Positions 202 to 22,504 of a stretch of 32,000 bases of DNA are shown here, one piece after another. Position numbers and translations under genes: made by a program. The DNA comes from Candidatus Saccharimonadota bacterium (GTDB lineage Bacteria > Patescibacteriota > Microgenomatia > UBA1406 > GWC2-37-13). How positions within the stretch are numbered: the first letter of the stretch is position 1; each line of letters opens with the position of its first letter. The stretch is taken from the NCBI GenBank assembly GCA_016699265.1, contig CP064967.1, positions 896,689 to 928,688 on the forward strand. The letters run 5' to 3'. Below the pieces are notes generated by a model. The model made no database searches. It worked only from the letters and a program-made list of their open reading frames with translations, and was not told the DNA's origin.

Positions 202-258
202 ACACTATTTATACTACAATTAGTGCTTGACAAGTGCTCGGTACACCATATATATTGT
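202..258 (+). promoter_or_regulatory. nrdR promoter with candidate NrdR boxes
   Basis: TTGACA at 227..232, a 17-18 nt spacer, then ATATAT/TATATT at 250..256. The 16-mer acaccatatatattgt (243..258) matches 14/16 positions of the NrdR-box consensus acaCwAtATaTwGtgt and overlaps the -10. A weaker box, acactatttatactac, lies at 202..217. Confidence 0.45.
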
Positions 259-279
259 TTTTGCGCTATAATATTACTT

Positions 280-726
280 ATGATATGTCCGTTTTGTAAG
301 AACGCCGATACAGAGGTCATAGAGACAAGAGTGTCAGAACAGGGTAATGTTATTCGCCGAAGAAGGAACTGTCCTAAGTGCGAGAAGCGTTTCACTACCT
401 ATGAGCGAATAGAGGAGATTCCGATGCTAGTTATCAAAAGAGATGGTAAGCGAGAACGATTTAACCCTGAGAAATTAAGAGACGGAATTCTAAGAGCTAC
501 GGGAAAGACAACGGTCACCGCAGGGCAGATTGATGAAATAGTTTCAAATGTAGAGTCTGAGATGAGACAAAAGGATGAGACCGAGATCGACAGCAAGATA
601 ATCGGAAACTTGGTTGCTAAGTACCTTAAGAAGCTCGATAAAGTTGCGTACATCCGGTTCGCGTCGGTATTTAGACGCTTTGTGGACGTAGAAGACTTTG
701 ATAAAGAAGTACAAAAGCTTAAGTAA
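280..726 (+). CDS. nrdR: Transcriptional repressor NrdR (zinc ribbon + ATP-cone)
   Basis: ORF 223..726 trimmed to ATG 280. MICPFCKNADTEVIETR...CPKCEKRFTTYER is the zinc ribbon, followed by an ATP-cone; colinear with NrdR over its full length. Confidence 0.95.
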   Translation: MICPFCKNADTEVIETRVSEQGNVIRRRRNCPKCEKRFTTYERIEEIPMLVIKRDGKRERFNPEKLRDGILRATGKTTVTAGQIDEIVSNVESEMRQKDETEIDSKIIGNLVAKYLKKLDKVAYIRFASVFRRFVDVEDFDKEVQKLK

Positions 727-854: not shown

Positions 855-2039
855 ATGAAACTCACCGGAATCTCACAAAAAGCATTCCTCGATCGATATT
901 CGTTAAAAGATAAAAAAGGTAAACCTGTTGAAAAGACACCGGACCAAATGTGGCGTCGAATTGCAAAGTCAGTTGCCGAAATTGAAAAAAAACCTGCACG
1001 AAAACGTTGGGAAAAGGAGTTTTATGATGCTATGGACAACTTCAAGTATGTCCCAGGCGGACGAATCTTAGCCGGTGCTGGTACGGGATACGATGTAAGT
1101 TTTTATAACTGTTTTGTTATTCCATCTCCAAAAGATTCACGTGGAGGCATTTTAGACACTCTAAAACAGATGGTTGAGATTATGGCTCACGGAGGTGGAG
1201 TAGGAATCAATCTTTCATCACTTCGACCAAAAGGCGCTCGTGTTAGAAAAGTAAATGGTTTCTCCTCAGGGCCTATGAACTGGGCTGAGCTTTTCTCACT
1301 CGCCACTAAGGATATCATTCAGCAGGGAGGAACCCGACGCGGCGCTCTTATGCTTATGCTGTGGGACTGGCACCCTGATATTGAGGAGTTTATCACCGTT
1401 AAGCAAGATCTGAATAGAATTAATGGAGCCAATCTTTCACTCTGCATTTCCGATAGCTTTATGGATGCGGTAAAAAAAGATGCTGATTGGCCATTGGTTT
1501 TCCCCGACGTCACAGATCCTGAGTACGATGAAAAATGGAACGGCGACCTTGAGGTCTGGAAGAAGCTAGGAAAAAAAGTTAAGGTGCAACGAGTTGTGAA
1601 AGCTCGCTATATCTGGGATCTTATTGCGGAGGCAGCATGGAAGTCTGCAGAACCAGGAGTAGTGTTTATGGAACGCTACAACAAGATGCACAACAACTAC
1701 TACTGGAATCGCATCAACTGCGTAAATCCGTGTGGTGAAGAGGGTCTCCCAGCATGGGGAGTCTGTAATCTTGGCTCAATTAATCTATCGGCCTTTGTAA
1801 GTGGCAACGATATTGATAAAAAGGGAGTCTTTGACTATAAAGAACTCAAAAAGACAGTTGCTCAGGCAGTGCGTTTTCAGGATAACGTCGTCGATATGGA
1901 TCCGTATATATTTGAGGGGATCCGTGAAACACAGTTGAATGGAGAAAGAAGGATTGGACTTGGCACAATGGGCCTTGGGGACACATTAATCAAGATGCAC
2001 ATTAGATATGGATCACCCGGAGAGTCTCGAGTTCATTGA
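855..2039 (+). CDS. nrdJ: Adenosylcobalamin-dependent (class II) ribonucleotide reductase, N-terminal part (frame broken near 2016)
   Basis: Carries the RNR motifs NCFVIPSP, GGGVGINLSSLRPKGA, NPCGEEGLP and CNLGSINLSAF. The frame ends 7 codons after an apparent extra C in the CCC run at 2016..2018. Confidence 0.9.
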   Translation: MKLTGISQKAFLDRYSLKDKKGKPVEKTPDQMWRRIAKSVAEIEKKPARKRWEKEFYDAMDNFKYVPGGRILAGAGTGYDVSFYNCFVIPSPKDSRGGILDTLKQMVEIMAHGGGVGINLSSLRPKGARVRKVNGFSSGPMNWAELFSLATKDIIQQGGTRRGALMLMLWDWHPDIEEFITVKQDLNRINGANLSLCISDSFMDAVKKDADWPLVFPDVTDPEYDEKWNGDLEVWKKLGKKVKVQRVVKARYIWDLIAEAAWKSAEPGVVFMERYNKMHNNYYWNRINCVNPCGEEGLPAWGVCNLGSINLSAFVSGNDIDKKGVFDYKELKKTVAQAVRFQDNVVDMDPYIFEGIRETQLNGERRIGLGTMGLGDTLIKMHIRYGSPGESRVH

Positions 2040-3282
2040 GGAAATCTATAGACTTATTAGAGATGAAGCGTATAGGGCATCTATGGAAATCTCCCGTGAA
2101 AAAGGTTCGTTCCCTAAGTTCGAACCAGTTCCATTCTCTAAAGGTCTTTTCATTAAACAGCTACCTCAAGATCTACAGACTCAGATTAAAAAATACGGAG
2201 TCAGAAACTCTGTAATTTTGATGCAGGCTCCTACTGGAACAACGGCTCTCGTAGCCAACACTACCTCAGGAATTGAGCCTGTTTTCGAGTATGAGTTTAC
2301 AAGAAAGTCCCGTCTTGGCGAAGACATTATCAGACATCACCTATACGATCAGTGGTTTAAAAAGCACGGTGAAGCATTCAAGAAAGGTGAGATCGAAAAA
2401 CCAGAATACTTTGTATCCGCAAACGATCTTTCACCTGAGGACCATGTAAGAGTTCAGGCTATTATTCAGAAATACGTTGATGCCTCTATCTCAAAAACGG
2501 TTAACGCTCCCAACTCTCAAACAGTTGAGGATGTTAAGAGGATCTATACCTTAGCCTATGATCTTGGCTGCAAAGGGATTGCATATATGAGAGACGGATC
2601 GAGACAGGGCGTCTTAATAAGGAAAGAGGAACCAGTCGCAGTAAAAGCCGTTGAGGTTTCGACTACTCCACAGTATGCGGTTCACCCACGACCTATGGTC
2701 GTACAGGGCTCAACCTATCGTATGAATACCCCCGTTGGAACCGCCTTTATCACCATTAACACAAATGGTGGTGGGGAGCCTCTTGAGGTCTTTATTAATG
2801 TGGGCAAAGCCGGAACAGATGTCTATGCGATGGCAGAGGGATTGGGCAGAATCGTCTCATTAGCCCTTCGTTTTTCGTCACATCTTGCTCCTCATGTACG
2901 AATTAAGGAGATAGTTGATCAGTTAGGTAGTATTGGTGGAGCTCGTGCAATGGGCTTTGGGAAAGAAAGAATCAAAAGTCTTCCTGATGCTGTTGCCAAA
3001 GCACTCGCGATGCACTATCACCTAGGAGCCTATGCTGAAGCCCCAAATGCAAATGGTCACAGTAATGGAAATGGCCACGTTACAAATGGACATGGGTCTA
3101 ATCATGATGAGCCGAAACTTGTAACTGAGGTTACTCAGCCGATGCTTACAGCTGTTGCTCCAGTACCACCGCCAGTCGTCCACACTCAAAGCTTTGATAT
3201 ATGTCCGAGCTGCGGTGAAGCCTTATTGGCTCATGAGGAAGGTTGTACCAAGTGCTATGGATGCGGATTTAGCGCATGCTAG
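2008..3282 (+). CDS. nrdJ: Class II ribonucleotide reductase, C-terminal part (continues 855..2039 in the +1 frame)
   Basis: PESLEFIEEIY... follows directly on ...IRYGS of the upstream ORF once one base is removed. Ends with the Cys cluster CPSCGEALLAHEEGCTKCYGCGFSAC, typical of class II RNR tails. Confidence 0.9.
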   Translation: MDHPESLEFIEEIYRLIRDEAYRASMEISREKGSFPKFEPVPFSKGLFIKQLPQDLQTQIKKYGVRNSVILMQAPTGTTALVANTTSGIEPVFEYEFTRKSRLGEDIIRHHLYDQWFKKHGEAFKKGEIEKPEYFVSANDLSPEDHVRVQAIIQKYVDASISKTVNAPNSQTVEDVKRIYTLAYDLGCKGIAYMRDGSRQGVLIRKEEPVAVKAVEVSTTPQYAVHPRPMVVQGSTYRMNTPVGTAFITINTNGGGEPLEVFINVGKAGTDVYAMAEGLGRIVSLALRFSSHLAPHVRIKEIVDQLGSIGGARAMGFGKERIKSLPDAVAKALAMHYHLGAYAEAPNANGHSNGNGHVTNGHGSNHDEPKLVTEVTQPMLTAVAPVPPPVVHTQSFDICPSCGEALLAHEEGCTKCYGCGFSAC

Positions 3283-3413: not shown

Positions 3414-3923
3414 ATGGCTATTTATACGCGTACTGGGGATAAAGGGACGACCGGTCTCTTCGGAGGGAAGAGGGTCTCCAAAGCTAGTGTGCTGATTGAG
3501 GCTGCGGGAGTAATTGACGAACTTACAACGTATGTGGGTTATGTTGCGCAAGCAATTCCCGGCGTTGAAACACAAAAATCTTTAGTAGAAATACAAAAAG
3601 ATCTTTACAGAATAATGTCGGTTGTCGCCGGAGCAAATATACCTATAGCGTATCTCGAGGGTAGAGCCAAAGATTTTGAACTAAACATAGATAGAATCAC
3701 GCTAAAGCTGTCAAATCTCAATAGCTTTATATTACCTGGTGGAACCAAAGATGCGTCCCTATTTCATATCCTTAGAGTATTGACTCGCAGGGCAGAAAGA
3801 GCAGTTGTTTCGGCAAAATCTGACGCTATAATAATTCAGTACTTAAATCGGTTATCCGATTTATTTTTTACATTAGCACGGAAATACGCAAAAGGAAAAG
3901 AAATTAAAATAAAAACTTTGTAA
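3414..3923 (+). CDS. pduO: PduO-type ATP:cob(I)alamin adenosyltransferase
   Basis: N-terminus is MAIYTRTGDKGTTGLFGG, the family signature. The 169-aa length and helical-bundle C-terminus (LTRRAERAVV, LNRLSDLFF) also fit. Confidence 0.9.
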   Translation: MAIYTRTGDKGTTGLFGGKRVSKASVLIEAAGVIDELTTYVGYVAQAIPGVETQKSLVEIQKDLYRIMSVVAGANIPIAYLEGRAKDFELNIDRITLKLSNLNSFILPGGTKDASLFHILRVLTRRAERAVVSAKSDAIIIQYLNRLSDLFFTLARKYAKGKEIKIKTL

Positions 3924-3925
3924 AT

Positions 3926-4057
3926 GCTGGTTTGGGGAATCCCGTGTAATTCGGGAACAGTGCCGCTACGGTGATGCCGGTGGTCAGCAATCAGGAGTCA
4001 GATCTCAGAACTGACGACTGAAAACTGAAAACTAGTTAGTCCGACTACCAAACAAGC
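3926..4057 (+). promoter_or_regulatory. Cobalamin riboswitch (candidate) in the leader of 4083..5204
   Basis: 3934..3976 reads ggggaatcccgtgtaattcgggaacagtgccgctacggtgatg. This is colinear with the conserved core of cobalamin riboswitches (AGGGAA-NCC-GUG-NAA-UC-GG-AC-G-CCGC-AC-GU-A, compare the E. coli btuB leader). AGTCAG, the start of a B12 box, lies at 3996..4001. A closing helix pairs gctggtttgg (3926..3935) with ccaaacaagc (4048..4057), 9 of 10 bp. The 3' half of the B12 box is divergent. Confidence 0.6.
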
Positions 4058-4082
4058 TCAAAACCCCGAGCAGGGAATATAT

Positions 4083-5204
4083 ATGACAGTAGAACAAGTA
4101 CGACCTCGCGTCGAAGAAGCTAAGCCTCAGACAACCTCAGATATTTTTAAGTACTACAGCGTTCCCAACGAAATCGCGTTTCTTGACAGAGTTCGTCAAG
4201 GTGGTGTTGGCCTGCAAGATTCTGACATATATGTCCAGGAAAATGTCGAGCGCTTTTTAGGAGAGTTTGCGGGGCAGGTCCCTTACACTAGAATTTCATA
4301 TCTGCAGAAGGACGGCCTACTAAAGTATGCTGGAATGGACCTTACCGAATCGTACAGGAGTACTAGCAAAAACAGTGATAGGGAGCTTGATGAATGTATC
4401 GGGTATGAAAAAATTCAGGCAGGATTTGGAAACGGCGCTCATACGGCTGTGTGGATTAGCCCACCCAAAATCGCGGACTACGGGTTTGTATTCTTCTTTC
4501 AGAGAGACCCACAAAATCCAGAACATGTCCGTGAATTCATACTTAGATATAATGAGCGTAAGGGCGATCTGGCAACGAGCCAAAAGATTCTGGACAGGAT
4601 CGATCCACTCCAGTCGTTCTCAACAGATAGAGATTATCTGCAGCGGCCACACATATTTTTCGAACAAGACGGTAACCATCCAACTCTACAAACTATCATG
4701 GCTGGTGTTGGAATTTCTTCCAAGCAGATTGAAAGCTCCAAACAATTTGAAGAGCGAGTCCGCGCCGAACTTGGTGGCTGGACCAATCAATATTCTCAAG
4801 CAGTTTCTCATGGAGATGTTGATCTGGCTAAATTAGTACTCCGATCGATTTATAACCGAGCATGCGAAATTAAAAAAGAGATCGATGGTGGTGCGGGCAC
4901 ATATGCTCCACCTAGGGCGCTTCCTATTGACGGCACTTTACTACACTTTTATGCGAAGCAGGAAAGACCAGTGAGTCAGGGGAGCTGCCCTGTCTCACAA
5001 ACCAACTTTGAAGATCCTTTTAGTCCAACCTCTATCATGGACCAACTCGTTGCAGGAAATACACTAAACAACGTCGTCACGGAGACTCAACATTTCACAT
5101 GCCCAAACTGTAATCACAAAGCAGATGGACCCGTAGGCGATCAGTGTCCTTCATGCAGTATTACCCGCGCTCAATGGGCAGAAAAGGGCAATAAGGTCTG
5201 TTAA
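4083..5204 (+). CDS. Orphan cytoplasmic protein with C-terminal zinc ribbon (CPNC-x11-CPSC), riboswitch-controlled
   Basis: 373-aa ORF with no hydrophobic segment and no family I recognise. The C-terminus is HFTCPNCNHKADGPVGDQCPSC. Starts 25 nt after the predicted riboswitch closing helix. Confidence 0.75.
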   Translation: MTVEQVRPRVEEAKPQTTSDIFKYYSVPNEIAFLDRVRQGGVGLQDSDIYVQENVERFLGEFAGQVPYTRISYLQKDGLLKYAGMDLTESYRSTSKNSDRELDECIGYEKIQAGFGNGAHTAVWISPPKIADYGFVFFFQRDPQNPEHVREFILRYNERKGDLATSQKILDRIDPLQSFSTDRDYLQRPHIFFEQDGNHPTLQTIMAGVGISSKQIESSKQFEERVRAELGGWTNQYSQAVSHGDVDLAKLVLRSIYNRACEIKKEIDGGAGTYAPPRALPIDGTLLHFYAKQERPVSQGSCPVSQTNFEDPFSPTSIMDQLVAGNTLNNVVTETQHFTCPNCNHKADGPVGDQCPSCSITRAQWAEKGNKVC

Positions 5205-5213
5205 GATGAAAGA

Positions 5214-5606
5214 ATGGATGACTCTCACACGCCACTAAAAAATCCTTTGATAAGCACCCCTACAAGCGGTAAGGAGACGGAACCTGCACCACACCAACCT
5301 CAAGAAATGATGGAGCCGATACGAGCTCCTGAGATTGGTCCCGAGGTATCTGCATATATTGAACAGCGAGACAAAATGACAGTCCCTCCCGATCTTAAGA
5401 GTATGGGAGTTCGGGCAGCCGATAATGTTCATGGATCTACAGGTCCAGCATTCCCAATATCTGACGAAAAGATTGAGGAAGGTCTTCACCAACCGGTCAA
5501 CTCTTCATGGAGATGGCTATCGGAGACTTTAGTCTATCACCTGAAACAACTTCATCTAACAATTAAGAAAGTACACGGCCACATAGTACGAGTTGCACGC
5601 GGCTAA
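5214..5606 (+). CDS. Orphan 130-aa protein, probably co-transcribed with 4083..5204
   Basis: ORF starts 9 nt after the upstream stop. The N-terminal half is Pro/Glu-rich and the C-terminal half is basic. No recognisable motif. Confidence 0.55.
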   Translation: MDDSHTPLKNPLISTPTSGKETEPAPHQPQEMMEPIRAPEIGPEVSAYIEQRDKMTVPPDLKSMGVRAADNVHGSTGPAFPISDEKIEEGLHQPVNSSWRWLSETLVYHLKQLHLTIKKVHGHIVRVARG

Positions 5607-5609
5607 TGT

Positions 5610-5693
5610 CGTATATCGTATAAGGTATTTGGTATTTTGTATAAAATCCCACGCAAAAACATACGAGATACGTCATACGGTATACGAAATACG
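5610..5693. repeat. GTAT/ATAC heptad palindrome, empty copy 1
   Basis: Built as 5 x NNNGTAT-type heptads (cgtatat cgtataa ggtattt ggtattt tgtataa), a 17-nt centre, then 5 x ATAC heptads (catacga gatacgt catacgg tatacga aatacg). Fills the spacer between convergent stop codons. Confidence 0.85.
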
Positions 5694-5696
5694 AGT

Positions 5697-6020
5697 TTAT
5701 GAAGATTTCGCTTTTTGAATTTCTTTTAGGAATCCTTCTTTACCCATTGCACCAACGAACTGATTTACAACCTTACCATCCTTGAAGACGATGAATGTAG
5801 GAATGGAAAAAACGGAGAACTGCGACGCCACTTCAGAGTTCTGATCAACATCGATCTTTACAAAAGAAACGTCCTTAACCTCCTCAGATAACTGCTCGAT
5901 AATTGGCTCTGTCATCTTACATGGCCCACACCAAACTGCATGAAAGTCTACAAAAACAAAACCTTTTCGATCTAGTACGTCTTGTTTAAAAGTTGCCTGC
6001 GTTATATCCTTCGTGCTCAT
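5697..6020 (-). CDS. trxA: Thioredoxin
   Basis: WCGPC active site. ORF 5697..6098 trimmed to MSTKDITQATFKQ (ATG at 6020), which gives the canonical ~107-aa length and has aaagga upstream. Confidence 0.9.
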   Translation of the reverse strand: MSTKDITQATFKQDVLDRKGFVFVDFHAVWCGPCKMTEPIIEQLSEEVKDVSFVKIDVDQNSEVASQFSVFSIPTFIVFKDGKVVNQFVGAMGKEGFLKEIQKAKSS

Positions 6021-6042
6021 ATCCTTTATACTAACATTTGGC

Positions 6043-7017
6043 ATGCAAAATCGCAATAACCAAATAGACATTCTTAGAGGTTTCGGCATCATGGCCATGA
6101 TTCTAATTCATGTCACGGCGTGGCATAAATCAGATGTCATAGCTTCCAGTTTATGGAACATTTCACAGTTTGCCGTGCAGGTATTTATCTTCTGTTCTGG
6201 TTATCTTTTTTTCCTTAAAGAGGGAGCCGGAACAACCATTCATTCCTTAGGCTATTTCACAAAAAGAGCTACGCGCCTACTTATTCCTTACTTTGTCTTT
6301 CTTGTTTTTTATCTGCCACTTGAGTTTATTGAGGCACCAAAAAGATTGTCTTTAACTTACGTGTTAAAAAGTCTCACTCTCACCGGAGGAACAGATCTCA
6401 ACTGGATAATTCTTTTATTTTTAATACTCGCAGTCCTCATGCCTTTGCTATTATTTCTTCTTCGCAAACACCGCTTTATGTTTTTCATCTACCTTCTCTT
6501 CGCCACTTTCTCTGCTGCTTTATTTTTAAAATTAGAAATTAAAAATTACAAATTCATCGCATGGCTTCCTTGGTCTCTCATGATTCTCGTATCGTGGTTT
6601 TTTGTTAAGTTTCATAATCGTCTGACACTGCTCTATGTATTCATTTCCAGTACGGTAACCGCGCTCATATTATCCTTTTATCTTTCGGTTCAAAATCATT
6701 CATTGGTATTTTTTGATAATAAGTATCCGCCAAATCTTTACTATCTTCTGTATGGAGTTGCATGGATTTCTGGTCTCTGGTTTGTTTTTAGCTTTATAGA
6801 TCTGGAGAAAAAAAGATGGGACATTGTACGCATCTTCAGCGTTAATTCCTACTCAATATATTTCATTCATTTCTGGATCTTTACATTTATTAGGGTCGTT
6901 CTAAAGTCAGATCTTCACTGGGGATATTTATTTGCGATAGTTATGATCTCATCTGTTCTGGTACAAAAGACCTTTAACGCATTCGCCAAAGCTAGGACTA
7001 CCTTGTCTCCACGTTAA
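6043..7017 (+). CDS. Acyltransferase-3 family integral membrane protein
   Basis: MQNRNNQIDILRGFGIMAMILIHV is the family N-terminal signature, followed by about 10 hydrophobic segments. Start moved to ATG 6043 to avoid overlap with trxA. Confidence 0.8.
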   Translation: MQNRNNQIDILRGFGIMAMILIHVTAWHKSDVIASSLWNISQFAVQVFIFCSGYLFFLKEGAGTTIHSLGYFTKRATRLLIPYFVFLVFYLPLEFIEAPKRLSLTYVLKSLTLTGGTDLNWIILLFLILAVLMPLLLFLLRKHRFMFFIYLLFATFSAALFLKLEIKNYKFIAWLPWSLMILVSWFFVKFHNRLTLLYVFISSTVTALILSFYLSVQNHSLVFFDNKYPPNLYYLLYGVAWISGLWFVFSFIDLEKKRWDIVRIFSVNSYSIYFIHFWIFTFIRVVLKSDLHWGYLFAIVMISSVLVQKTFNAFAKARTTLSPR

Positions 7018-8656: not shown

Positions 8657-8666
8657 GGTTTCATTA

Positions 8667-8748
8667 TATCGCGTATCGTGTATCGTGTATCGCGCATCTC
8701 AAGAGCGTCCTTGCGTTAAACGTTACGCGATTTGCGTTTCGCGACGTA
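8667..8748. repeat. TATCGYG-word heptad palindrome
   Basis: Left arm tatcgcg tatcgtg tatcgtg tatcgcg (8667..8694). Right arm cgcgatt tgcgttt cgcgacg (8726..8746) pairs with it, including G-U positions. Fills the spacer between two minus-strand genes. Confidence 0.7.
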
Positions 8749-10420: not shown

Positions 10421-10587
10421 TTTCAAAGCTCAAATGTCAAATAAAATCTGAAGCCAAAAGCTAGAACTTTTAAATTTTAGGTTTTTAAATTTATTTGATA
10501 TTGGGATTTTGAGTTTAATGCAGTTTGATGTATTGCATAATTGTGTATATGTCATTATTATTTGTGCATAAGTTATCCACATATACA
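10421..10587. other. Candidate oriC / dnaA promoter region: AT-rich tract plus DnaA-box cluster
   Basis: Perfect DnaA box TTATCCACA at 10573..10581. An inverted box tgtgcataa (TTATGCACA on the other strand) at 10563..10571. A one-mismatch box at 10542..10550. The tract 10460..10500 is very AT-rich. All lie directly upstream of dnaA. Confidence 0.65.
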
Positions 10588-11922
10588 ATGTCTGAGGCTG
10601 AATGGAACCAATTTTTACTTTCTTTAATCGAGGGAGCTGATAAAAACCCTGTTCTTTTCTCTATTCTTAAGCAGGTCTCTCTGTTGTCGGTAAGCGAGAG
10701 GTCGGTAGTACTCTCAACCGACAGTCAAGGGTTCTTTATATTCATTCAAAAGCGCGTACCCGAGATTGAGGAGAGACTGTCTCTTTTTACAAAAAAAACT
10801 CTTAGCATTGAGGTTGTTGTCTCTACTACTCAGGAAAAAAAGATGAAAGAGGCGCCTCTGCTGTCGTTTGAACCGTCCCAAGAAGATGTCTATCGAAAGG
10901 CTGGACTTAACGGAAAGTACTCTTTCGATAACTTTGCGGTTTCAGGTTCAAATCAGGTAGCGTATGCGGCAGCACAGGCCGTAGCAGATAATCTTTCAAA
11001 GGCATATAACCCACTTTTTTTGTATGGTGGGGTGGGTGTAGGGAAGACGCACTTAGCCCAAGCCGTTGCGAGTAAAATTTTGGGAGACGACCCTCAAAAG
11101 AGGGTTGTTTTTAGTCCGGGAGAGCAGTTTACAAACGAACTGATCGAATCTATTCGTGAAAAAAACACAGCAAAATTTCGTAAAAGATATAGACATCTAA
11201 ACCTCTTAATCGTTGACGATATTCAGTTTATCGCAGGTAAAAACACGGTTCAGGAGGAGTTTTTTCACACCTTTAATGCGGTTGTGTCGGGCGGAGGGCA
11301 GATTATTTTTACCTCAGATCGTCCACCTCAGGACATTAAAAACTTAGAAGACCGTCTTCGTTCGCGTTTTGCAGGCGGACTAACTGTCGATGTTCAGCCT
11401 CCAGATTTTGAATTAAGAACGGCAATTCTTCTTATTAAAGCTAAAGAGAAGGGTATAGAGCTGGGAATTGATCTGGCCAGAATTATAGCCGAGCAGGTAT
11501 CCGACTCCCGCTCACTAGAGGGTACCCTTCTCTCTATATACGCCCGAACTCTTGGCAGGGAGGAGAAAATAACTCTTACTGTGGTTGAGTCTTTCTTCCA
11601 TACGGAAAGTGAGGTGCGCCCTAAAATTAGGATTACCCCTCATGAGATACTTAATGTTGTTTGTTCATACTACAACATCAAACAATCTCAGTTAAAAAGT
11701 CCGATCCGCTCAGAGTCACTATCTTTACCACGACAGGTTACTATGTTTTTACTTAGAAGAGAGTTAAATATGAAACACCAAGAGATAGCCAACTTACTTA
11801 AAAGAAGAGACCACACTACTATTATGCATGGGGTTGAAAAGATAAATAAAATGCTCGTTAAAGACGATTTTTTTAAGAAAGAGGTTGATAGAATAATCCA
11901 AACCCTCCACCTCTCCACATAG
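10588..11922 (+). CDS. dnaA: Chromosomal replication initiator DnaA
   Basis: Walker A GGVGVGKTHL, Walker B LLIVDDIQF, and a C-terminal DNA-binding helix-turn-helix (HTTIMHGVEKI). Start trimmed to MSEAEWNQF. Confidence 0.95.
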   Translation: MSEAEWNQFLLSLIEGADKNPVLFSILKQVSLLSVSERSVVLSTDSQGFFIFIQKRVPEIEERLSLFTKKTLSIEVVVSTTQEKKMKEAPLLSFEPSQEDVYRKAGLNGKYSFDNFAVSGSNQVAYAAAQAVADNLSKAYNPLFLYGGVGVGKTHLAQAVASKILGDDPQKRVVFSPGEQFTNELIESIREKNTAKFRKRYRHLNLLIVDDIQFIAGKNTVQEEFFHTFNAVVSGGGQIIFTSDRPPQDIKNLEDRLRSRFAGGLTVDVQPPDFELRTAILLIKAKEKGIELGIDLARIIAEQVSDSRSLEGTLLSIYARTLGREEKITLTVVESFFHTESEVRPKIRITPHEILNVVCSYYNIKQSQLKSPIRSESLSLPRQVTMFLLRRELNMKHQEIANLLKRRDHTTIMHGVEKINKMLVKDDFFKKEVDRIIQTLHLST

Positions 11923-11987
11923 ATTACACAAACTATCTACATGCTAAAAGGCGGTGTTTGTCTTGTCTTGAAAATGAGAACTGTTTT

Positions 11988-12004
11988 TTATACACTTATC
12001 CCCA
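11988..12004 (+). promoter_or_regulatory. Two overlapping near-consensus DnaA boxes in the dnaA-dnaN spacer
   Basis: TTATACACT at 11988..11996 and TTATCCCCA at 11996..12004, each one mismatch from TTATNCACA. Confidence 0.4.
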
Positions 12005-12029
12005 CGTACTACTACTACGAAGTTTATAT

Positions 12030-13133
12030 ATGAAAATAATTTTAGACAAAGAACAATTACTGAATAACGTCCAGATATCCACACGCTTCACGTCGAAAAG
12101 ACTCTCAACAATACAATCACTACAAGGAGCTATGTTTACCATCGAAGGAGACAAGCTCACAATATACGCGACAGACCTAAATACCAACTTTAGCTCAACA
12201 ACAAAACTAAAGACAACCTCCAAAGAGAAGAAGTCGTTTGTAACCGATCCCAAAAAACTTGCTGAATTCCTCGCCTTACTAGCACCAGGAGACATCGTAC
12301 TTATAGTTGAAGAAAAAAAAATTACCATACAGAAAGAAAAAAACCAAGGATTTTTTAACATAATGGAAAGTGGCGACTTTCCATTACCACCAAAACTAAT
12401 CGAAAAACCAATAGTTCTAAAAGCCGAACAATTTAAAAAAACACTTCCACTTGTTTTATTTGCTGCATCAAGAGACGAAGCAAGACCGGCTTTATCCGGC
12501 GTAAACTTTGTATCCAGTGATGGGGAGCTTGTTACAGTAGCCACAGACGGATTTAGACTGTCTTTACTTAAAGAAAAAAATACACAGAAAGTACCTTCGA
12601 TGTTGGTTCCTAGAGTATTTTTTGAGGAGGTATTAAGTGGGCTTAAGGAAGAAGATGAGATTAACTTTACAACCTCCGAAAAGGAAAAGATGGTTAAGTT
12701 TTCAACCCCTACGAAGGAGTATTACAGCCGAGTAATTGAAGGGGCGTTTCCTCCCTTTGAAAAGGTTATACCAACCGAAAAAAAACAAACAATTATCACA
12801 GATCGAGAGGAACTATTAAGAAACATTAAAATAGCGTCGTTATTCGCCCGTGAACAATCAAATATTATTATTCTTAAGGGTGAGAAAGGCGTGATTCAAA
12901 TACGTCCAAAAACCGACAACAGTGATGAAAACACCTCAACTCAAGACGCAGAGATTGAGGGAGACGCTATTCAAGTAGCGTTCAACGCAAGATTTTTATT
13001 AGATTTTCTCCAGAACGTATCAGGTAAAAAAATAACCATTGAGCTGCTCAGATCAGACGCCCCTACGGTATTTAAGACGGATAATCAGAAAAACTTCATC
13101 CATATAATTATGCCCGTTAGGATTCAATCCTAA
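12030..13133 (+). CDS. dnaN: DNA polymerase III beta sliding clamp
   Basis: MKIILDKEQLLNNVQ start, ~367 aa, three-domain pattern with ATDGFRLS and a RSDAPTVF...IIMPVR C-terminus. Lies downstream of dnaA. Confidence 0.9.
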   Translation: MKIILDKEQLLNNVQISTRFTSKRLSTIQSLQGAMFTIEGDKLTIYATDLNTNFSSTTKLKTTSKEKKSFVTDPKKLAEFLALLAPGDIVLIVEEKKITIQKEKNQGFFNIMESGDFPLPPKLIEKPIVLKAEQFKKTLPLVLFAASRDEARPALSGVNFVSSDGELVTVATDGFRLSLLKEKNTQKVPSMLVPRVFFEEVLSGLKEEDEINFTTSEKEKMVKFSTPTKEYYSRVIEGAFPPFEKVIPTEKKQTIITDREELLRNIKIASLFAREQSNIIILKGEKGVIQIRPKTDNSDENTSTQDAEIEGDAIQVAFNARFLLDFLQNVSGKKITIELLRSDAPTVFKTDNQKNFIHIIMPVRIQS

Positions 13134-13220: not shown

Positions 13221-13670
13221 TTAGAGTTCCTCTATCTTATCTTTCTTATGGGGGGTTTCTTTAACCAAGCTTAAGAAACGCTCGGTTGAAGAAAGACGTT
13301 TGTGGCCAACTATTTTAGCAATATAGTCTATAGAGTATCCAGCCATGAGTTGATGCGCTATAAAGGTATTTCTAAAGTCGTTGATAGTGGCATTTTCTAT
13401 ACCAACCTCCTTAAAACACCTCATAATTATCTGGCGAACATTTCTAATAAGCAAACCTTTACCCGTACGAGTCACAAATAGTAAATCGTCAGGAGATGTC
13501 TGGCTGCCTCTTACTGCTAGATAGTCATCAATGGCTTTTTTAACAGATGGACTAAGGGGAACCTCTCGCCCAGAGCTCTTACCATAGCCTCTCACAACTA
13601 AAGCGGAGTCCTTAACATCCGATACGCAGATACTTGTAAGCTCACCAATTCTCACGCCGGTTTGGAGCAA
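13221..13670 (-). pseudogene. Xer-type tyrosine recombinase, catalytic-domain fragment (frameshifted, nucleophile Tyr replaced)
   Basis: LLQTGVRIGEL carries the first catalytic Arg. NDFRNTFIAHQL stands in place of HxLRHTFAT, and GHKRLSSTERF in place of GH...T..Y. The fragment is separated from the N-terminal domain by a frameshift at 13715..13716. Confidence 0.75.
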
Positions 13671-15427: not shown

Positions 15428-16264
15428 ATGGAGCAACATCCTATTCCGCGCCAAATAACGAGCTTCGAGTTTAAGCTGATAGGTTTCATGACGCTTCACC
15501 AATTCATATATCTATTAGTCTTTATTCCGTCAGGATTTGCGGTATATAAATTAATTCCCATTCCGTTTGTTAATATACTCATTGGATTTATGATCTCCTC
15601 CATTGGAGTGCTTCTAGCTTTCTTACCAATAAACGATCGACCGCTTGACGTGTTTATCAAAAATCTTTTTAAACGACTCACATCTCCGACTCAGTATATG
15701 TACAAAAAGTCGAATCACCCACTTTATTTTTTGAACAATTTATATTTTGTCAACGACCCTCACAAAGTTTTAGCGCATGTAGAGTCGCAGGAGATGTTGT
15801 CAGAGTATCTGAAAACAAATACGCTTCCTCCAGTTACAGTCCAAACAGACACACGTTCCTTAGTAGGAGTTCAGGAAGCTTTTAAAAATCCTACCCTAAA
15901 TCAACAATCAACTACCGCAACCACAGTTTCCGCAACAGAGAGTCCTTCAACTAGCTATCCACCAAAACAGGGAGAGCCGTCGCGCATAGCTCAACAACCA
16001 TTCTTTCTTGGAGTGGTAAAAAACAATAAAGAGACGCCGCTTCCCGAGATTCTGGTGTACATTAAGGATGAACGAAACAACCCAGTCAGGCTCTTAAAAA
16101 CAAATCCGCACGGTGTTTTCGCTACCTACAACTCACTACCTGGGGGTGAATATTTTGTAGAAGCGAAGGACCCGAGAGGTTCGCATCTTTTTGATACAAT
16201 GAAAGTAAGGCTCGATGATACAAATCCCTCCACCTTTAATGTAGTTTCAAAAGGATTATTATGA
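15428..16264 (+). CDS. PrgI-family membrane protein (T4SS-associated) with C-terminal carboxypeptidase-regulatory-like beta domain
   Basis: N-terminus IPRQITSFEFKLIGFMTLHQFIYL plus two TM segments, as in PrgI-family proteins. The C-terminus (PEILVYIKDERNNPV...NPHGVFATYNSLPGGEYFVEAKDPRG) resembles CarboxypepD_reg folds. Confidence 0.6.
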   Translation: MEQHPIPRQITSFEFKLIGFMTLHQFIYLLVFIPSGFAVYKLIPIPFVNILIGFMISSIGVLLAFLPINDRPLDVFIKNLFKRLTSPTQYMYKKSNHPLYFLNNLYFVNDPHKVLAHVESQEMLSEYLKTNTLPPVTVQTDTRSLVGVQEAFKNPTLNQQSTTATTVSATESPSTSYPPKQGEPSRIAQQPFFLGVVKNNKETPLPEILVYIKDERNNPVRLLKTNPHGVFATYNSLPGGEYFVEAKDPRGSHLFDTMKVRLDDTNPSTFNVVSKGLL

Positions 16265-16920
16265 CAAATTCCACCACCAAACAGTCACCGACAAAAGCAA
16301 CGACTCAGTCGTTCACAGAGATAGAGGAAATACAGGACGATGTTGTTTTGATGAGGGACTTTTCGGCAGTAACTGTCGTTGAGGTTGGAGCGGTTAATTT
16401 TTGGCTATTGTCGCAGGACGAGCAGGTTTCGATGATTCAGTCTTATTCAAATCTTCTAAACTCATTGTCTTTTCCAGTGCAGATTCTTATTGTTTCCAAA
16501 AAAATGGACATCTCGGTTTACCTTGAATACATTCAGGAACGTTTGCGGAATCAACCGGATGCACAGCAACAAAAAAGACTTCAAAGCTACCAAGATTTTA
16601 TTAAGAATACGGTAAAGAAAACAACAATTTTAGAGAAGCGATTCTTTTTTGTGGTTCCTTTTAGTCCTCTGGAAATGGGTGTCAGCGGAGCAAATACGAA
16701 GGGTTTGAAAAAAGAATATGTTTTTGCACGCGCAAAGACAGCGCTATATCCCAAAAGAGATAATCTAATTAGGCTTTTAACAAAGACCGGTCTACGGGCT
16801 ACTCCTCTCGCAAAACAAGGGTTGGTCGAGATTTATTACAACCTATACAACATGTCGGCAACTGGAAGACAGCTCGGACCAATCGATAGCTATACCGACG
16901 TTGTAATGACGGGAAAATAA
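16261..16920 (+). CDS. T4SS-module partner protein, unknown function
   Basis: Its start overlaps the upstream stop (ATGA), and its stop lies 2 nt before the VirB4-like start. The pattern VTVVEVGAVNFWLLSQDEQ...SYSNLLNSLSFPVQILI is reminiscent of VirB4/TraC N-terminal domains (by eye only). Confidence 0.6.
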   Translation: MTNSTTKQSPTKATTQSFTEIEEIQDDVVLMRDFSAVTVVEVGAVNFWLLSQDEQVSMIQSYSNLLNSLSFPVQILIVSKKMDISVYLEYIQERLRNQPDAQQQKRLQSYQDFIKNTVKKTTILEKRFFFVVPFSPLEMGVSGANTKGLKKEYVFARAKTALYPKRDNLIRLLTKTGLRATPLAKQGLVEIYYNLYNMSATGRQLGPIDSYTDVVMTGK

Positions 16921-16922
16921 TT

Positions 16923-18674
16923 ATGTTCGGATTAAATAAAAATAAACAACAATCGAAAGCACGGCCGACACATTCTGCCGGAAATGTTGCTGATTTGATG
17001 GCGAATGGCTCGGTCTCGATTAAAGATCTCATAGCCCCAGCGTTCGTAGAAGTAGACTTCAACCATATTAGAATAGACGAGAGGTATTACAAAACGCTCT
17101 ATGTGGTCGGCTACCCACGATACGTTTCTGCCAACTGGCTATATTCACTTATCACATTCGATCATCCTCTTTATATCTCGATGTATATTTATCCAACAGA
17201 ATCGAAAAACGTTCTTGAGGAGCTTAAGCGTAAGATTGGAGAGATGGAGGCAACGATCGAGGGAGACATGAAGGAAGGTAAGGTTGTTGACCCGACCGTT
17301 CAGGTTGCGCTTGATGACGCCCTTGGACTACAGGCAGAGCTAGCAAAGGGAGCGGAGAGATTTTTTCAGTTTGGGCTCTACATCACTCTTCCAGCAGACT
17401 CCAAAGAGGAGCTTGAGCAGATTTCTAAACAGGTCGAGTCAATCTTAGCTTCGCTTTTAATCGTGTCTCGCGCGGCGACGTTAGAGATGGAGGAAGGATT
17501 CAAGTCCACACTTCCAATGTTCTATGACAAGCTAAGCGTTTGGCGAAATATCGACAGCACGTCGCTCGCCATGACCTTTCCATTTTCCACCGCCTCTTTG
17601 ACCAGAAATGAAGGAATTCTATACGGTGTAAACCAGAACGACAGTAGTTTGATCATCTTCGATCGTTTTACTCTTGAGAACGCCAATTCCGTGATACTGG
17701 GGAAATCGGGTGGAGGAAAGAGCTTTATGGTGAAGCTTGAAGCTCTGAGACTCTTATCGATGGATGTAGACGTCATAATAATAGATCCTGAAAATGAGTA
17801 CAAAAAACTAGCAGAGTCAGTAGGAGGAGAGTTCGTTGAGTTCTCGGTTAAGTCGCAGTATAAAATCAATCCATTTGACCTAATTAAAGACAATCCTGAA
17901 CCGGATGAGCTTCAGAATAAGATTCTCGATCTACATTCGCTAATGCGAGTCATGATGGGTGACTTAACGCCAGCACAAGACGCACTCCTCGATCGAGCTC
18001 TCGTAGCTGTATATGAACAAAAAGGAATTACGCAGGATCCGGCTAGTTTTAAAAATGAAGCACCTCTCTTGGAAGATCTTTTCAAGGTGTTTTTGGGAAT
18101 GGAGACCGCTGAGGGCAAAGAGCTTGCGGGACGTTTGGAAAAGTACGTAAAGGGTTCTGCTGCGGGAATATTTAATGAAAGATCGAACTTTAATATAAAA
18201 AATAAATTCACAGTTTTTGGAATAAGAGACTTGGAGGAGAATCTCCGTCCGGTTGCGATGTATATAGTCCTAGATTATATCTGGAATACAGTAAGACGAG
18301 AGAAAAAAAAGAGGATTCTCATCGTTGATGAAGCTTGGTATATGATGAAGAACAAGGACTCGGGGGCTTTTCTTTTTAACTTTGCAAAACGTTCGCGAAA
18401 ATATCTCCTCGGCTTAACAACGGTTACGCAGGACGTAGAAGATTTTATAGCTACAAATGAAGGGCGTGCAATAATTACAAACTCCAGTCTTCAGATAATT
18501 CTTAAACAGTCAACTGCCGCAGTGGATGCAATTACAAAGACATTTGCATTGACCGGTGGAGAGCGTCATTTTCTACTAGGTGCTGGAGTTGGAGAAGGAC
18601 TATTCTTCGCAGGACAAGCTCATGTAGGATTTAAGGTCATTGCCTCCGAGGACGAAAAAGCAACTATTGAGTAA
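16923..18674 (+). CDS. virB4: VirB4/TraC-family type IV secretion ATPase
   Basis: Walker A GKSGGGKSF, Walker B RILIVDEAWYMM, a gram-positive VirB4-like N-domain (YYKTLYVVGYPRYVSANWL) and the distal motif LGLTTVTQD. Confidence 0.8.
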   Translation: MFGLNKNKQQSKARPTHSAGNVADLMANGSVSIKDLIAPAFVEVDFNHIRIDERYYKTLYVVGYPRYVSANWLYSLITFDHPLYISMYIYPTESKNVLEELKRKIGEMEATIEGDMKEGKVVDPTVQVALDDALGLQAELAKGAERFFQFGLYITLPADSKEELEQISKQVESILASLLIVSRAATLEMEEGFKSTLPMFYDKLSVWRNIDSTSLAMTFPFSTASLTRNEGILYGVNQNDSSLIIFDRFTLENANSVILGKSGGGKSFMVKLEALRLLSMDVDVIIIDPENEYKKLAESVGGEFVEFSVKSQYKINPFDLIKDNPEPDELQNKILDLHSLMRVMMGDLTPAQDALLDRALVAVYEQKGITQDPASFKNEAPLLEDLFKVFLGMETAEGKELAGRLEKYVKGSAAGIFNERSNFNIKNKFTVFGIRDLEENLRPVAMYIVLDYIWNTVRREKKKRILIVDEAWYMMKNKDSGAFLFNFAKRSRKYLLGLTTVTQDVEDFIATNEGRAIITNSSLQIILKQSTAAVDAITKTFALTGGERHFLLGAGVGEGLFFAGQAHVGFKVIASEDEKATIE

Positions 18675-18725
18675 CTTCATTGTATAATTATCTTCACTAA
18701 TGGGTTTACCTTGAGCGGAAGCGAA

Positions 18726-18798
18726 GGGCCTGTGGCGCAATGGCCAGCGCGTCTCTATGGCATAGAGAAGGTTACGGGTTCGAGTCCCGTCAGGTCCA
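18726..18798 (+). tRNA. tRNA-Ala (anticodon GGC)
   Basis: Hand-folded cloverleaf. Acceptor GGGCCTG/CAGGTCC with the G3:U70 alanine identity pair. D stem GCGC/GCGC. Anticodon stem TCTCT/AGAGA with loop ATGGCAT. T arm ACGGG-TTCGAGT-CCCGT. CCA is not encoded. Confidence 0.9.
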
Positions 18799-18803
18799 CA
18801 ATT

Positions 18804-18812
18804 TGATATAAT
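18804..18812 (+). promoter_or_regulatory. Extended -10 promoter element ahead of tRNA-Lys
   Basis: TGATATAAT matches TGnTATAAT exactly and lies 33 nt upstream of the tRNA 5' end. Confidence 0.4.
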
Positions 18813-18844
18813 GAAGTTCTTCTAACCGATAGAATTACGTTCCT

Positions 18845-18918
18845 GGGCCCCTAGCTCAACTGGTTAGAGCAGTAGCCTTTTAAGCTATTGGTTCTGGGTT
18901 CGAGTCCCAGGGGGCTCA
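18845..18918 (+). tRNA. tRNA-Lys (anticodon UUU)
   Basis: Hand-folded. Acceptor GGGCCCC/GGGGCTC. D arm GCTC-AACTGGTTA-GAGC. Anticodon stem GTAGC/GCTAT with loop CTTTTAA. T arm CTGGG-TTCGAGT-CCCAG. CCA is not encoded. Confidence 0.9.
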
Positions 18919-18944
18919 CAATATTCAGATTGTCATAACGCTCT

Positions 18945-19085
18945 ATGCCAATCCCGGTATGGACATTAGGTATAGAAAACTTCAAACAGCCAAGAGTGGC
19001 TTACGCACTATTTTTTATGATGGTAGTATTGGCGAGCGCGTTTATGTGGAGGAGCCAAAAAAAAGAAGTTAGCCCACTGACGTAG
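18945..19085 (+). CDS. Possible 46-aa single-TM peptide
   Basis: Unlisted small ORF MPIPVWTLGIENFKQPRVAYALFFMMVVLASAFMWRSQKKEVSPLT, with one hydrophobic helix followed by basic residues. No Shine-Dalgarno site. Speculative. Confidence 0.2.
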   Translation: MPIPVWTLGIENFKQPRVAYALFFMMVVLASAFMWRSQKKEVSPLT

Positions 19086-19101
19086 ACCTCGTAGGTCTAC
19101 G
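19081..19101. terminator. Hairpin between the convergent small ORF and TPR gene
   Basis: cgtagacct-cgt-aggtctacg, a 9-bp perfect inverted repeat. The A8 run at 19067..19074 gives a U-run on the minus transcript, but about 6 nt beyond the stem. Confidence 0.4.
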
Positions 19102-19110
19102 GAGGGTAAA

Positions 19111-19512
19111 TTAAAGCGCGGGATCGATTTGTTTGGCTTTGTTTAGATAGTCTAGAGCCTTGGTTTCGTTTCCAGCCTGAGAGTAGAGAAGGTAGAGGTT
19201 GTAAAGGGCATCCCGTGATGAAGGATTCTTCTGGAGGAGATTCTCAAGTTCTTGAATCTTGTTTTTGCGAAGAGTGTCGCTGTAAAAAACCTCTTCTTCT
19301 ATGCGTTTACCGTACAAATTTTTATATAGAATTAAGTCTTTCTTAAAAGTTGGAAGCGAACGAACACTTTGTAGATATGGTACGATTGCATTCTTTTCGT
19401 TGACAATCTGTTTGAAGTACAGCGGTGAGATGAGCTGAGAAAACACAAGGTTGATAACCATATATGTTGCGGCTAACGACAAAAATGTTCCCCAAGCAAA
19501 TTTTTTAATCAT
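19111..19512 (-). CDS. Membrane-anchored TPR-repeat protein
   Basis: N-terminal TM segment (FAWGTFLSLAATYMVINLVF). The C-terminus is TPR-like (ALYNLYLLYSQAGNETKALDYLNKAKQIDP). Confidence 0.65.
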   Translation of the reverse strand: MIKKFAWGTFLSLAATYMVINLVFSQLISPLYFKQIVNEKNAIVPYLQSVRSLPTFKKDLILYKNLYGKRIEEEVFYSDTLRKNKIQELENLLQKNPSSRDALYNLYLLYSQAGNETKALDYLNKAKQIDPAL

Positions 19513-19516
19513 GTGT

Positions 19517-19621: not shown

Positions 19622-19633
19622 TATAATGAAAAT

Positions 19634-22503: not shown

Positions 22504-22504
22504 T

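Follow-up and report, generated by a model that had tools for sequence, protein, structure and literature searches.

A locus in the genome of a Candidatus Saccharimonadota bacterium raises the question of what two unnamed genes do behind a cobalamin-dependent ribonucleotide reductase (RNR), and of what controls them. The stretch of DNA that was analysed, referred to here as the window, comprises 32,000 nucleotides (nt) of contig CP064967.1 (positions 896,689 to 928,688). Within it, at 3926-5606, a leader is followed by two open reading frames, ORF373 and ORF130, and all of this stands behind nrdJ and pduO. An earlier note on this DNA, made from the sequence alone, had read the leader as a cobalamin riboswitch and the genes as possibly a function in salvaging or handling vitamin B12 or a B12-independent backup. 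The comparison with related loci puts the probability that the window element is a cobalamin riboswitch at about 0.95.

At the Rfam gathering thresholds, no riboswitch was found in the whole 32-kb window. A sensitive Rfam scan of positions 3850-4150 gave a match to the adenosylcobalamin (AdoCbl)-II family RF01689 at 3917-3994, with 28.3 bits and E 8.9e-5, below the gathering score of 36.5 bits (RF00174, also of clan CL00101, gathers at 31.5 bits); taken alone, this score is suggestive only. The window aptamer is below threshold in Rfam because of an insertion in helix P6, and the RF01689 alignment pushes its 3′ half onto a spurious nearby segment. The covariance-model search foreseen in the earlier note thus stays below gathering in the window itself, and significance comes from the orthologous leaders and from R1, a covariance model of nine compact orthologous leaders with the window sequence left out. 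In the 32 kb, R1 gives a single match, at 3922-3996 (49.4 bits, E 2.5e-15), with a runner-up at 10.7 bits and E 0.31; the window aptamer is far beyond chance. R1 too places the 3′ half on a pseudo-partner (about 3973-3996) and not on the distal segment.

The presence of a riboswitch was decided by the comparative evidence. Altogether 35 protein clusters homologous to ORF373 were gathered, 25 of which were aligned (alignment A1), and 47 loci were examined: 37 found with the ORF373 profile and fetched from genomes and metagenomes, 6 of distant homologues (about 15-35% identical to one another, found by profile search), and 4 more (L044-L047). Leaders were located by a regular expression for the core motif together with covariance models; nhmmer, with the window leader as query, found no match in the relatives' loci. 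The core GGGAA-P4-CNGUGCCGCNNCNGU ... AGUCCGA lies directly 5′ of the homologue in 37 of the first 37 loci. Rfam gathering scores are passed by 9 of the 11 scanned loci of this first set (RF00174 up to 64 bits, RF01689 up to 56 bits), an RF00174 match of 34-53 bits precedes the gene in all six distant loci, and overall 15 of the 17 scanned loci pass. R1 matches before the homologue in L044, L046 and L047. It can be seen that an aptamer stands directly upstream of the ORF373 homologue in 46 of 47 loci; in the remaining one, L045, it stands before pduO. With the R1 score and the orthologous leaders that pass Rfam, the cobalamin aptamer core claimed for the ORF373 leader is upheld, and so is the proposed linkage of homologues to cobalamin riboswitches and to nrdJ/pduO, which is seen in nearly every locus.

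The leader and the two genes behind it are made up as follows, in window coordinates.

3926..4057, + strand: the whole cobalamin aptamer, supported by RF01689 on the 5′ part, R1, the orthologous leaders and the fold
3926-3935 with 4048-4057, + strand: P1/P3 closing helix, GCU(G)GUUUGG with CCAAAC(A)AGC, 9 base pairs (bp) and one bulge per strand
3940-3944 with 3952-3956, + strand: P4 hairpin UCCCG/CGGGA, with the 7-nt loop L4, UGUAAUU, at 3945-3951
3959-3960 with 3966-3967, + strand: P5 (AG/CU), with loop L5, UGCCG, at 3961-3965
3969-3971 with 4041-4043, + strand: P6, CGG with CCG, enclosing the extension 3972-4040
4038..4047, + strand: B12-box-like core AGUCCGA (4038-4044) and J6/3 (4044-4047)
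4058-4063, + strand: linker
4064..4075, + strand: P13, the expression-platform hairpin, CCC 4064-4066 with GGG 4073-4075 and loop L13, CGAGCA, at 4067-4072
4083..5204, + strand: ORF373, the first putatively regulated gene, 373 amino acids (alignment A1 and a structure model)
5214..5606, + strand: ORF130, the second putatively regulated gene, 130 amino acids, 9 nt after ORF373 (alignment A2)

The true 3′ half of the aptamer is AGUCCGACUACCAAACAAGC at 4038-4057, identical at 20 of 21 positions to the segment of L018, whose leader scores 56 bits, above the Rfam threshold. An insertion of 65 nt stands between it and ACGGU (3968-3972), and 69 nt lie between the two strands of P6. This P6 extension is a self-contained imperfect hairpin of -21.2 kcal/mol; orthologues carry inserts of 2 to 102 nt at the same position, and among the peripheral elements of cobalamin riboswitches the P6 extension is classically the variable one (PMC7367189). 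Two details of the first description had to be corrected accordingly: the start of a B12 box that was placed near 3977 is not the orthologous one, which lies at 4038-4044, and the aptamer does not end at about 3994, since the orthologous 3′ half extends to 4057. The closing helix that had been called plausible is found in the unconstrained minimum free energy (MFE) fold, and its sequence differs among loci with complementarity kept. The motif AG[UC]C[CAG]G[AG] occupies the core position in all 38 leaders (37 loci and the window), and the core motifs of the clan (GGGAA, a T-loop-like L4, GCCGC-A-C-GGU and AGUCCGA) are all present at 3935-3972 and 4038-4044. With the consensus helices enforced, the fold has -46.6 kcal/mol, compared with -50.5 for the MFE; the unconstrained fold holds the closing helix, P4, the extension hairpin and a P13 of two pairs.

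Covariation was examined in alignment A4, which holds 26 distinct leaders, trimmed and with variable insertions excised. Standard pairs occupy 96.6% of cells, compared with 84.9% in shuffles, and 49 cells are altered on both sides, compared with 11.5. The covariation score is 0.309; sliding the partners by 1 to 3 columns lowers it to 0.099 or less. Changes on both sides are seen in 4 of the 5 pairs of P4, where 99.2% of cells are paired across the 26 leaders; in P5, 22 leaders have a U-A pair where 4 have A-U, and the middle P6 pair is G-C, C-G or U-A according to locus. The stem of P13 occurs as CCC/GGG, CCA/UGG and ACA/UGU, and the hairpin lies 5-15 nt before the start codon in 35 of the 38 leaders; in the three exceptions (L006, L027 and L028) the start codon was assigned by script, hence the greater distance.

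A kissing loop between L5 and L13 can also be proposed. In the window, L5 (UGCCG, 3961-3965) pairs with L13 (4067-4072) through five pairs with A4069 bulged, and across the leaders UGCCG faces CG(N)GCA with one or two nucleotides bulged. L5 is invariant except for UACCG in L006, L027 and L028, where L13 ends in GUA, a compensatory double change; the covarying pair is G-C in 24 leaders and A-U in 2. An L5-L13 kissing loop is common to all classes of cobalamin riboswitch, always with at least one unpaired nucleotide and with L13 presented by a hairpin (PMC5028336; PMC7367189), and the bulged L13 nucleotide is its hallmark (PMC5028336). The window element shows both features, an unpaired nucleotide and an L13 within the platform hairpin.

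The class of the element is less uniform than its core. The four-way junction P3-P6 of clan CL00101 is present. Class Cbl-I is recognised by a P2 loop-stem-loop together with a large P6 extension (P7-P11); the window has the 69-nt extension and lacks P2, with GGAA alone between P3 and P4 and a continuous closing helix. Class Cbl-II has no P2 and a short P6, which agrees with the 5′ side of the window element and not with its extension. Among the orthologous leaders, compact ones with 2-3 nt at P6 agree with Cbl-II and those of a second clade carry a P2 hairpin, so that the series spans compact Cbl-II-like forms to P2-bearing forms with long extensions. As a hybrid, the window element joins a Cbl-II-like 5′ side to a Cbl-I-like P6 extension.

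As to how the switch would act, a translational mechanism was judged likeliest because no intrinsic terminator was found on the + strand of the leader and because both P13 and GGGAA lie close to the AUG at 4083: GGGAA (4073-4077) ends 5 nt before it and P13 ends 7 nt before it. The hairpin at 3844-3863 resembles a terminator but is probably none; it is part of the pduO reading frame and codes for a conserved YLNRLSD-type segment. Cobalamin would bind the four-way-junction aptamer (P3-P6), and binding would stabilise the L5-L13 kissing loop and dock P13 on the aptamer; the docked P13 would block loading of the 30S subunit on ORF373, and translation would be repressed. ORF130, so close behind ORF373, would be co-regulated and probably coupled. 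The probability of this OFF mechanism by kissing loop is put at about 0.8. The stop codon of pduO is at 3921-3923 and its spacer to ORF373 is 159 nt; because the aptamer starts 2 nt after that stop codon, the switch would lie inside a polycistronic unit and control the distal genes only. The products of nrdJ and pduO would then be made regardless of B12 and would answer to the repressor NrdR, and ORF373 and ORF130 would be made only when cobalamin is scarce. In this scheme we infer, by analogy, the direction of the switch (OFF with B12) and, from the position of the aptamer, the co-transcription of its genes with pduO.

Several points count against such a mechanism. The window aptamer is below the Rfam gathering score, a 69-nt P6 extension is unusual with a Cbl-II-like 5′ side, and ligand binding and selectivity are predicted properties. 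Shine-Dalgarno sequences are rare upstream of gene starts in the window, so that what is usually called sequestration of the ribosome-binding site would really be occlusion of the initiation region. In addition, a perfect TATAAT (3827-3832) with a poor -35 element lies in the 3′ end of pduO, and there may be an internal promoter there.

Apart from a C-terminal Cys4 ribbon in ORF373, the proteins behind the switch matched no known family or fold in the collections searched. The AlphaFold2 (AF2) model of ORF373, built on the family alignment, is confident (predicted local distance difference test, pLDDT, 81.8; predicted template-modelling score, pTM, 0.75) and consists of a five-stranded alpha/beta domain, a helical bundle, a low-confidence GSCP loop and a Cys4 ribbon. 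Its cysteines are the invariant C302 of GSCP, C340, C343, C355 and C358 of the ribbon, and the C-terminal Cys373; E61, R100, S126, Y133 and C302 are invariant across very divergent members. Features that return throughout the family are an SPP[KS] motif, the cysteine of GSCP, a pair of CxxC knuckles and a cysteine among the final three residues. When 1.84 billion representatives were searched with the profile, 461 clusters (50% identity) came up at E<=1e-3, 121 of them at E<=1e-30. One homologue, P0035 (L046 4109-5305), is about 29% identical to the window protein, and its last approximately 45 residues, including the Cys4 ribbon and KGNQVC, are nearly identical to those of P0002, which suggests recombination between divergent alleles.

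No match to ORF373 was found in Pfam, NCBIfam, PHROG or the PDB sequences, whether with the single sequence or with the profile, and the profile drew only coiled-coil and Zn-ribbon noise from the PDB sequences. When 51 + 25 family members were scanned singly, the recurrent weak matches were confined to a Zn-ribbon/rubredoxin-like C-terminus, and the longer members gave no informative domain fusions. Foldseek with the ORF373 model reached a best E of 0.35 in the PDB and 0.12 in BFVD, with a template-modelling score of at most 0.17; weak PAS, longin and hot-dog fold matches were judged not credible. The structural check suggested earlier was thus carried through, with a confident model and no fold relative in either collection. 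No membership of RNR was detected by an RNR domain in Pfam or NCBIfam, a ten-stranded barrel or an RNR among the Foldseek matches, and no sequence or fold likeness was found to the known B12-binding, processing or transport proteins (CblC/CblD, BtuF/BtuM/CbrT, DUF4430). Kinship of the GSCP motif and Cys4 tail to the TSCPD/Cys-rich tail of NrdJ (CPxC...GCxxCxxCG..C) was considered and rejected: hhalign gave a probability of 15.9%, aligning the ORF373 C-terminus with the NrdJ tail over 17 columns round one CPxC knuckle only, and BLASTP gave E 0.11.

ORF130 belongs to a small unnamed family, among whose invariant features are SSWRWL and a basic helix; it has no match in Pfam or NCBIfam. Its low-confidence AF2 model (pLDDT 62) is mostly disordered, the N-terminal part included, with the C-terminal helix alone confident; residues 98-129 make up this conserved helix (SSWRWL...LKK). 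In 28 of 37 loci the ORF373 homologue has an ORF130 homologue downstream of it; this is divergent in L002 and absent in L012. The sizes of 373 and 130 amino acids and the want of a transmembrane segment were described correctly at the outset: neither protein has a hydrophobic segment (top 19-residue Kyte-Doolittle means of 0.92 for ORF373 and 0.23 for ORF130), and a mean of at least 1.6 is reached by 1 of 177 family members of ORF373, with no convincing transmembrane segment. It also holds good that the cargo is unlike that usual for riboswitches, as it matched neither a known fold nor any family of transporters, cob/cbi, metE or RNR. The cargo is a sizeable unannotated family without a detectable fold relative.

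The genes around the switch in the window are the following.

223..726, + strand: nrdR, ATP-cone and Zn-ribbon repressor (Pfam PF22811, PF03477)
243-258: NrdR-box-like palindrome ACACCATATATATTGT, with 2 mismatches to the consensus
855..3282, + strand: nrdJ, class II adenosylcobalamin-dependent ribonucleotide reductase (TIGR02504, NF006417)
3414..3923, + strand: PduO-type ATP:cob(I)alamin adenosyltransferase (PF01923, E 7.6e-45; TIGR00636, 142.5 bits, cutoff 108.45)
5697..6098, - strand: thioredoxin (TIGR01068, 113 bits, cutoff 96.8), convergent with ORF373/ORF130

That the locus sits directly after nrdJ and pduO is confirmed by Pfam and NCBIfam, with the qualification that nrdJ carries a 1-nt frameshift. 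The nrdJ product carries a TSCPD domain and, at its C-terminus, a Cys-rich tail. One extra nucleotide near 2019-2020 breaks the gene into the ORFs 855-2039 and 2008-3282; in the alignment the window reads CACCCGGAGAG where the intact relatives L001 and L018 have CACCC-GAAAG. Two more genes of the window, for an integrase (13652-13670) and an FAD/NAD oxidoreductase (22503-22505), are likewise frame-split into two ORFs. With three frameshifts in 32 kb, assembly indels seem likelier than pseudogenes; a genuinely broken nrdJ, if true, would alter the biology of the locus. The real start of nrdR is probably near 280, and the candidate NrdR box lies upstream of it. At up to 3 mismatches, 0.42 matches were expected in the box search, and the candidate suggests a possible autoregulation of the whole operon.

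All 47 loci come from contigs of the Candidate Phyla Radiation (CPR)/Microgenomates type (Roizmanbacteria, Microgenomates metagenome-assembled genomes, and groundwater and sediment metagenomes), which places the window organism too among the ultrasmall bacteria of CPR/Patescibacteria type. The order nrdR-nrdJ-pduO-[switch]-ORF373-ORF130-(thioredoxin, on the opposite strand) recurs in all sufficiently flanked loci except L012. The thioredoxin neighbour was found by tblastn in 23 of 37 loci, and by gene calls also in L038-L041 and L046. L012 has the homologue with its riboswitch but neither nrdJ, pduO nor ORF130 close by; because these two are kept there, riboswitch and ORF373 can be regarded as the invariant module. 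By eye, a convergent membrane protein of L012 (7206-8303, - strand) has a thioredoxin-like CPHC motif and DsbD/CcdA-like transmembrane segments; on this reading L012 keeps a thiol-redox neighbour where ORF130 and thioredoxin are missing.

Purine metabolism is said to be lacking from CPR-type organisms at the level of synthesis, and purF-like genes are unexpected there. Such a gene, for an amidophosphoribosyltransferase (TIGR01134 195-232 bits, short of the 350 required for an equivalog), separates pduO from the switch in L046 (2413-3969), L047 (5179-6711), L013 (4185-5711) and L002 (1965-3599). In L002 it is followed by a weak formyltransferase-like ORF (3523-4425).

In 13 loci of one clade (L004, L008, L009, L011, L020, L022, L023, L025, L029-L032 and L037; in L008 at 4812-5755), a DUF4430 and a DUF6580 gene lie between pduO and the switch, abutting pduO and upstream of the aptamer; tblastn found neither in the window. 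The DUF4430 protein is membrane-anchored and the DUF6580 protein is multi-pass, and DUF4430 is a domain found at the C-terminus of transcobalamins (PMC4350170). We infer that the two are a candidate B12 uptake pair of CPR bacteria. Because they lie upstream of the aptamer, these candidate uptake genes are outside the control of the switch.

Two loci, of another lineage, place pduO itself behind an aptamer. In L044 both pduO and the homologue have one of their own; L045 has just one aptamer, ahead of pduO, with the homologue 66 nt behind pduO and without its own. In the pduO riboswitches (L044 6063-6251, L045 6073-6298) the platform is a CUCCUC...GAGGAG hairpin, then U6, directly before the AUG, which could be a sequestrator of the Shine-Dalgarno sequence or a terminator. 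The nrdJ of L045 contains an intein with a LAGLIDADG domain.

Because homology gives nothing, function has to be argued from regulation and context. The reading preferred here is that ORF373, with ORF130, is a cytoplasmic thiol/redox factor that processes cobalamin or hands it off to PduO; its probability is put at about 0.45, somewhat short of even odds. ORF373 would prepare non-adenosylated corrinoids for PduO as a functional analogue of CblC/CblD or PduS, and would use the GSCP cysteine, the Cys4 ribbon (Zn or Fe) and the terminal cysteine. An AdoCbl-sensing switch would shut the converter off when AdoCbl is plentiful, and PduO would stay on and restore the adenosyl group to cofactor that had been inactivated on NrdJ. 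To adenosylate cobalamin, a B12 auxotroph has to remove the upper ligand and carry out reduction, and no genes for these steps are visible in the cluster. Cysteine and thiol-redox chemistry on cobalt is known for BtuM, CblC and CblD, and the flexible invariant cysteine, Cys4 site and terminal cysteine of ORF373 would suit such chemistry. B12 handling is also favoured by position, as the gene follows pduO or the uptake genes placed after pduO, and by L044 and L045, where control by a B12-responsive aptamer is common to pduO and the homologue. These two loci tip the alternative posed at the start, handling or backup, towards handling; the choice is narrowed only.

Other observations weigh against this function. 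ORF373 is unlike any known B12-binding or B12-processing fold. PduO in most loci and DUF4430/DUF6580 in 13 loci are outside the switch, and ORF373 is under it; such regulation is classically seen for B12-independent isozymes (PMC545781). The position of the uptake genes outside the switch fits both B12 handling and a bypass of B12.

A bypass is unlikely. According to this explanation, the pair would be a B12-repressed, B12-independent substitute for NrdJ and would supply deoxynucleoside triphosphates (dNTPs) by salvage of deoxynucleosides or deoxynucleoside monophosphates, or by a new reductive or radical-generating activity. A flexible and a terminal cysteine are indeed the arrangement of thioredoxin-dependent reductases, but ORF373 bears no likeness to any RNR class, nucleoside kinase, deoxyribosyltransferase or salvage enzyme; its model has a five-stranded sheet instead of the ten-stranded RNR barrel, and no P-loop motif was seen by eye in the sequence. 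The operon of the pair begins with nrdR and nrdJ and has thioredoxin next to it, yet the homologue is found after pduO or the genes placed after pduO, never beside nrdJ alone. In the 13 loci with uptake genes upstream of the switch, the pair alone would be B12-repressed, whereas in L045 a single riboswitch would govern both the gene and pduO, which encodes a B12-processing enzyme. Precedent and neighbourhood give the bypass its remaining weight: B12-independent RNR is repressed by B12 elements in genomes where NrdJ occurs as well (PMC545781), and the cluster can include genes of nucleotide metabolism, purF-like in L002, L013, L046 and L047 and formyltransferase-like in L002. A novel B12-independent supply of dNTPs, by a thioredoxin-linked enzyme of new fold or by a partner that lets NrdJ work without adenosylcobalamin, is very improbable.

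Also doubtful is a role away from B12 chemistry, in which the pair would be a regulator or adaptor that, for want of the cofactor, halts replication or remodels the use of RNR and thioredoxin, with the Zn ribbon binding nucleic acid or protein. The ribbon is the sole recognisable module of ORF373, yet it is joined to a large well-folded domain whose invariant polar residues resemble an active or ligand site. ORF130, largely disordered with one long helix, has a build typical of adaptors, and dnaA/dnaN are a few kb away both in the window and in L046, but the strict coupling to pduO argues for cofactor metabolism.

That the window switch has decayed through the 65-nt insertion, leaving ORF373 and ORF130 constitutive here though regulated in relatives, is highly improbable: the sub-gathering Rfam score, the pseudo-partner to which both Rfam and R1 align the 3′ half, the frameshifted genes and an unconstrained MFE fold that pairs 3962-3966 with 3980-3984 in competition with P5 and P6 could be taken that way, but all conserved core positions are intact, including L5, AGUCCGA, the closing helix, P13 and L13, inserts of 19-102 nt at the same site are common in orthologues that pass Rfam thresholds, a long P6 extension is normal in Cbl-I riboswitches (PMC7367189), and the insertion folds as a hairpin by itself.

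The rest of the window adds to the setting. After the thioredoxin gene, an acyltransferase and SpoIID follow within the first 8.7 kb, and Rfam at its gathering threshold finds two tRNAs in the window. The dnaA/dnaN genes (10525-13133) lie about 5 kb from the RNR/B12 cluster, and the region of the replication origin is probably close to them. A set of genes like those of type IV secretion (PrgI, VirB4-like and coupling protein) occupies 15428-21988; in L039, L041 and L042, too, type-IV-secretion-like genes come after the cluster, as dnaA/dnaN do in L046. Several genes have a TATAAT-like hexamer within about 10-20 nt of the start codon (upstream regions e.g. 8657-8681, 19609-19633, 26108-26132 and 27217-27241), which suggests that leaderless or very-short-leader mRNAs may be used in this organism.

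The RNA class itself is very well known, and the window element is a member with hybrid periphery and intra-operon position. Nothing relevant on the ORF373 family or on CPR riboswitches was found in open-access papers and bioRxiv. So consistent an association with the switch suggests a B12-related function as yet undescribed. CPR/Patescibacteria have very small genomes and cannot synthesise B12, and the lineages examined rely on the B12-dependent NrdJ for DNA precursors; the locus bears on how that cofactor is processed, used sparingly or dispensed with. Few "hypothetical proteins" come with regulatory and positional evidence of this consistency, which opens the function to direct test. Moreover, the orthologous switches form a natural series, from Cbl-II-like to Cbl-I-like periphery before the same gene, and the locus would be an example of an intra-operon riboswitch governing distal genes only.

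Compared with known systems, the window element is like the Cbl-IIa riboswitch env8HyCbl (RF01689; PDB 4FRN) in its P3-P6 four-way junction without a P2 arm. As in env8HyCbl, L5 is predicted to kiss the L13 hairpin at the translation start, with a bulge on the L13 side and translational control (PMC5028336), and the compact orthologues L018, L034, L015, L012 and L007 pass the RF01689 gathering score. Unlike env8HyCbl, it has the 69-nt P6 extension and its own L5 and L13 sequences (UGCCG with CG-N-GCA), and its place is within an operon, 2 nt behind the stop codon of pduO, rather than in a promoter-adjacent 5′ untranslated region. With Cbl-I (RF00174; Thermoanaerobacter tengcongensis, PDB 4GMA) it shares a long P6 extension and the conserved core, and leaders of the second clade and of the distant homologues, in which the P2 arm is present, pass the RF00174 gathering score; unlike Cbl-I, the window is without the P2 loop-stem-loop. 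In mixing peripheral elements of both classes it is like the yvrC element of Bacillus subtilis (PMC7367189).

As to the regulated genes, the proposed scheme is like that of the B12-repressed nrdDG, nrdAB and metE in its repression by B12 in a genome with NrdJ and in its association with RNR genes (PMC545781), which here is deduced from the genes. Unlike those, ORF373 and ORF130 have no sequence or fold likeness to RNR or methionine synthase. Among proteins that prepare cobalamin, BtuM acts by cysteine-mediated decyanation and PduS is a cobalamin reductase. To these and to CblC/MMACHC and CblD/MMADHC no similarity was detected, and Pfam shows no domain for flavin, Fe-S or B12 binding in ORF373 or ORF130. 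What they would have in common with CblC, CblD, BtuM and PduS is a likeness other than homology: a proposed role in cobalamin preparation, a conserved cysteine and a neighbouring adenosyltransferase gene.

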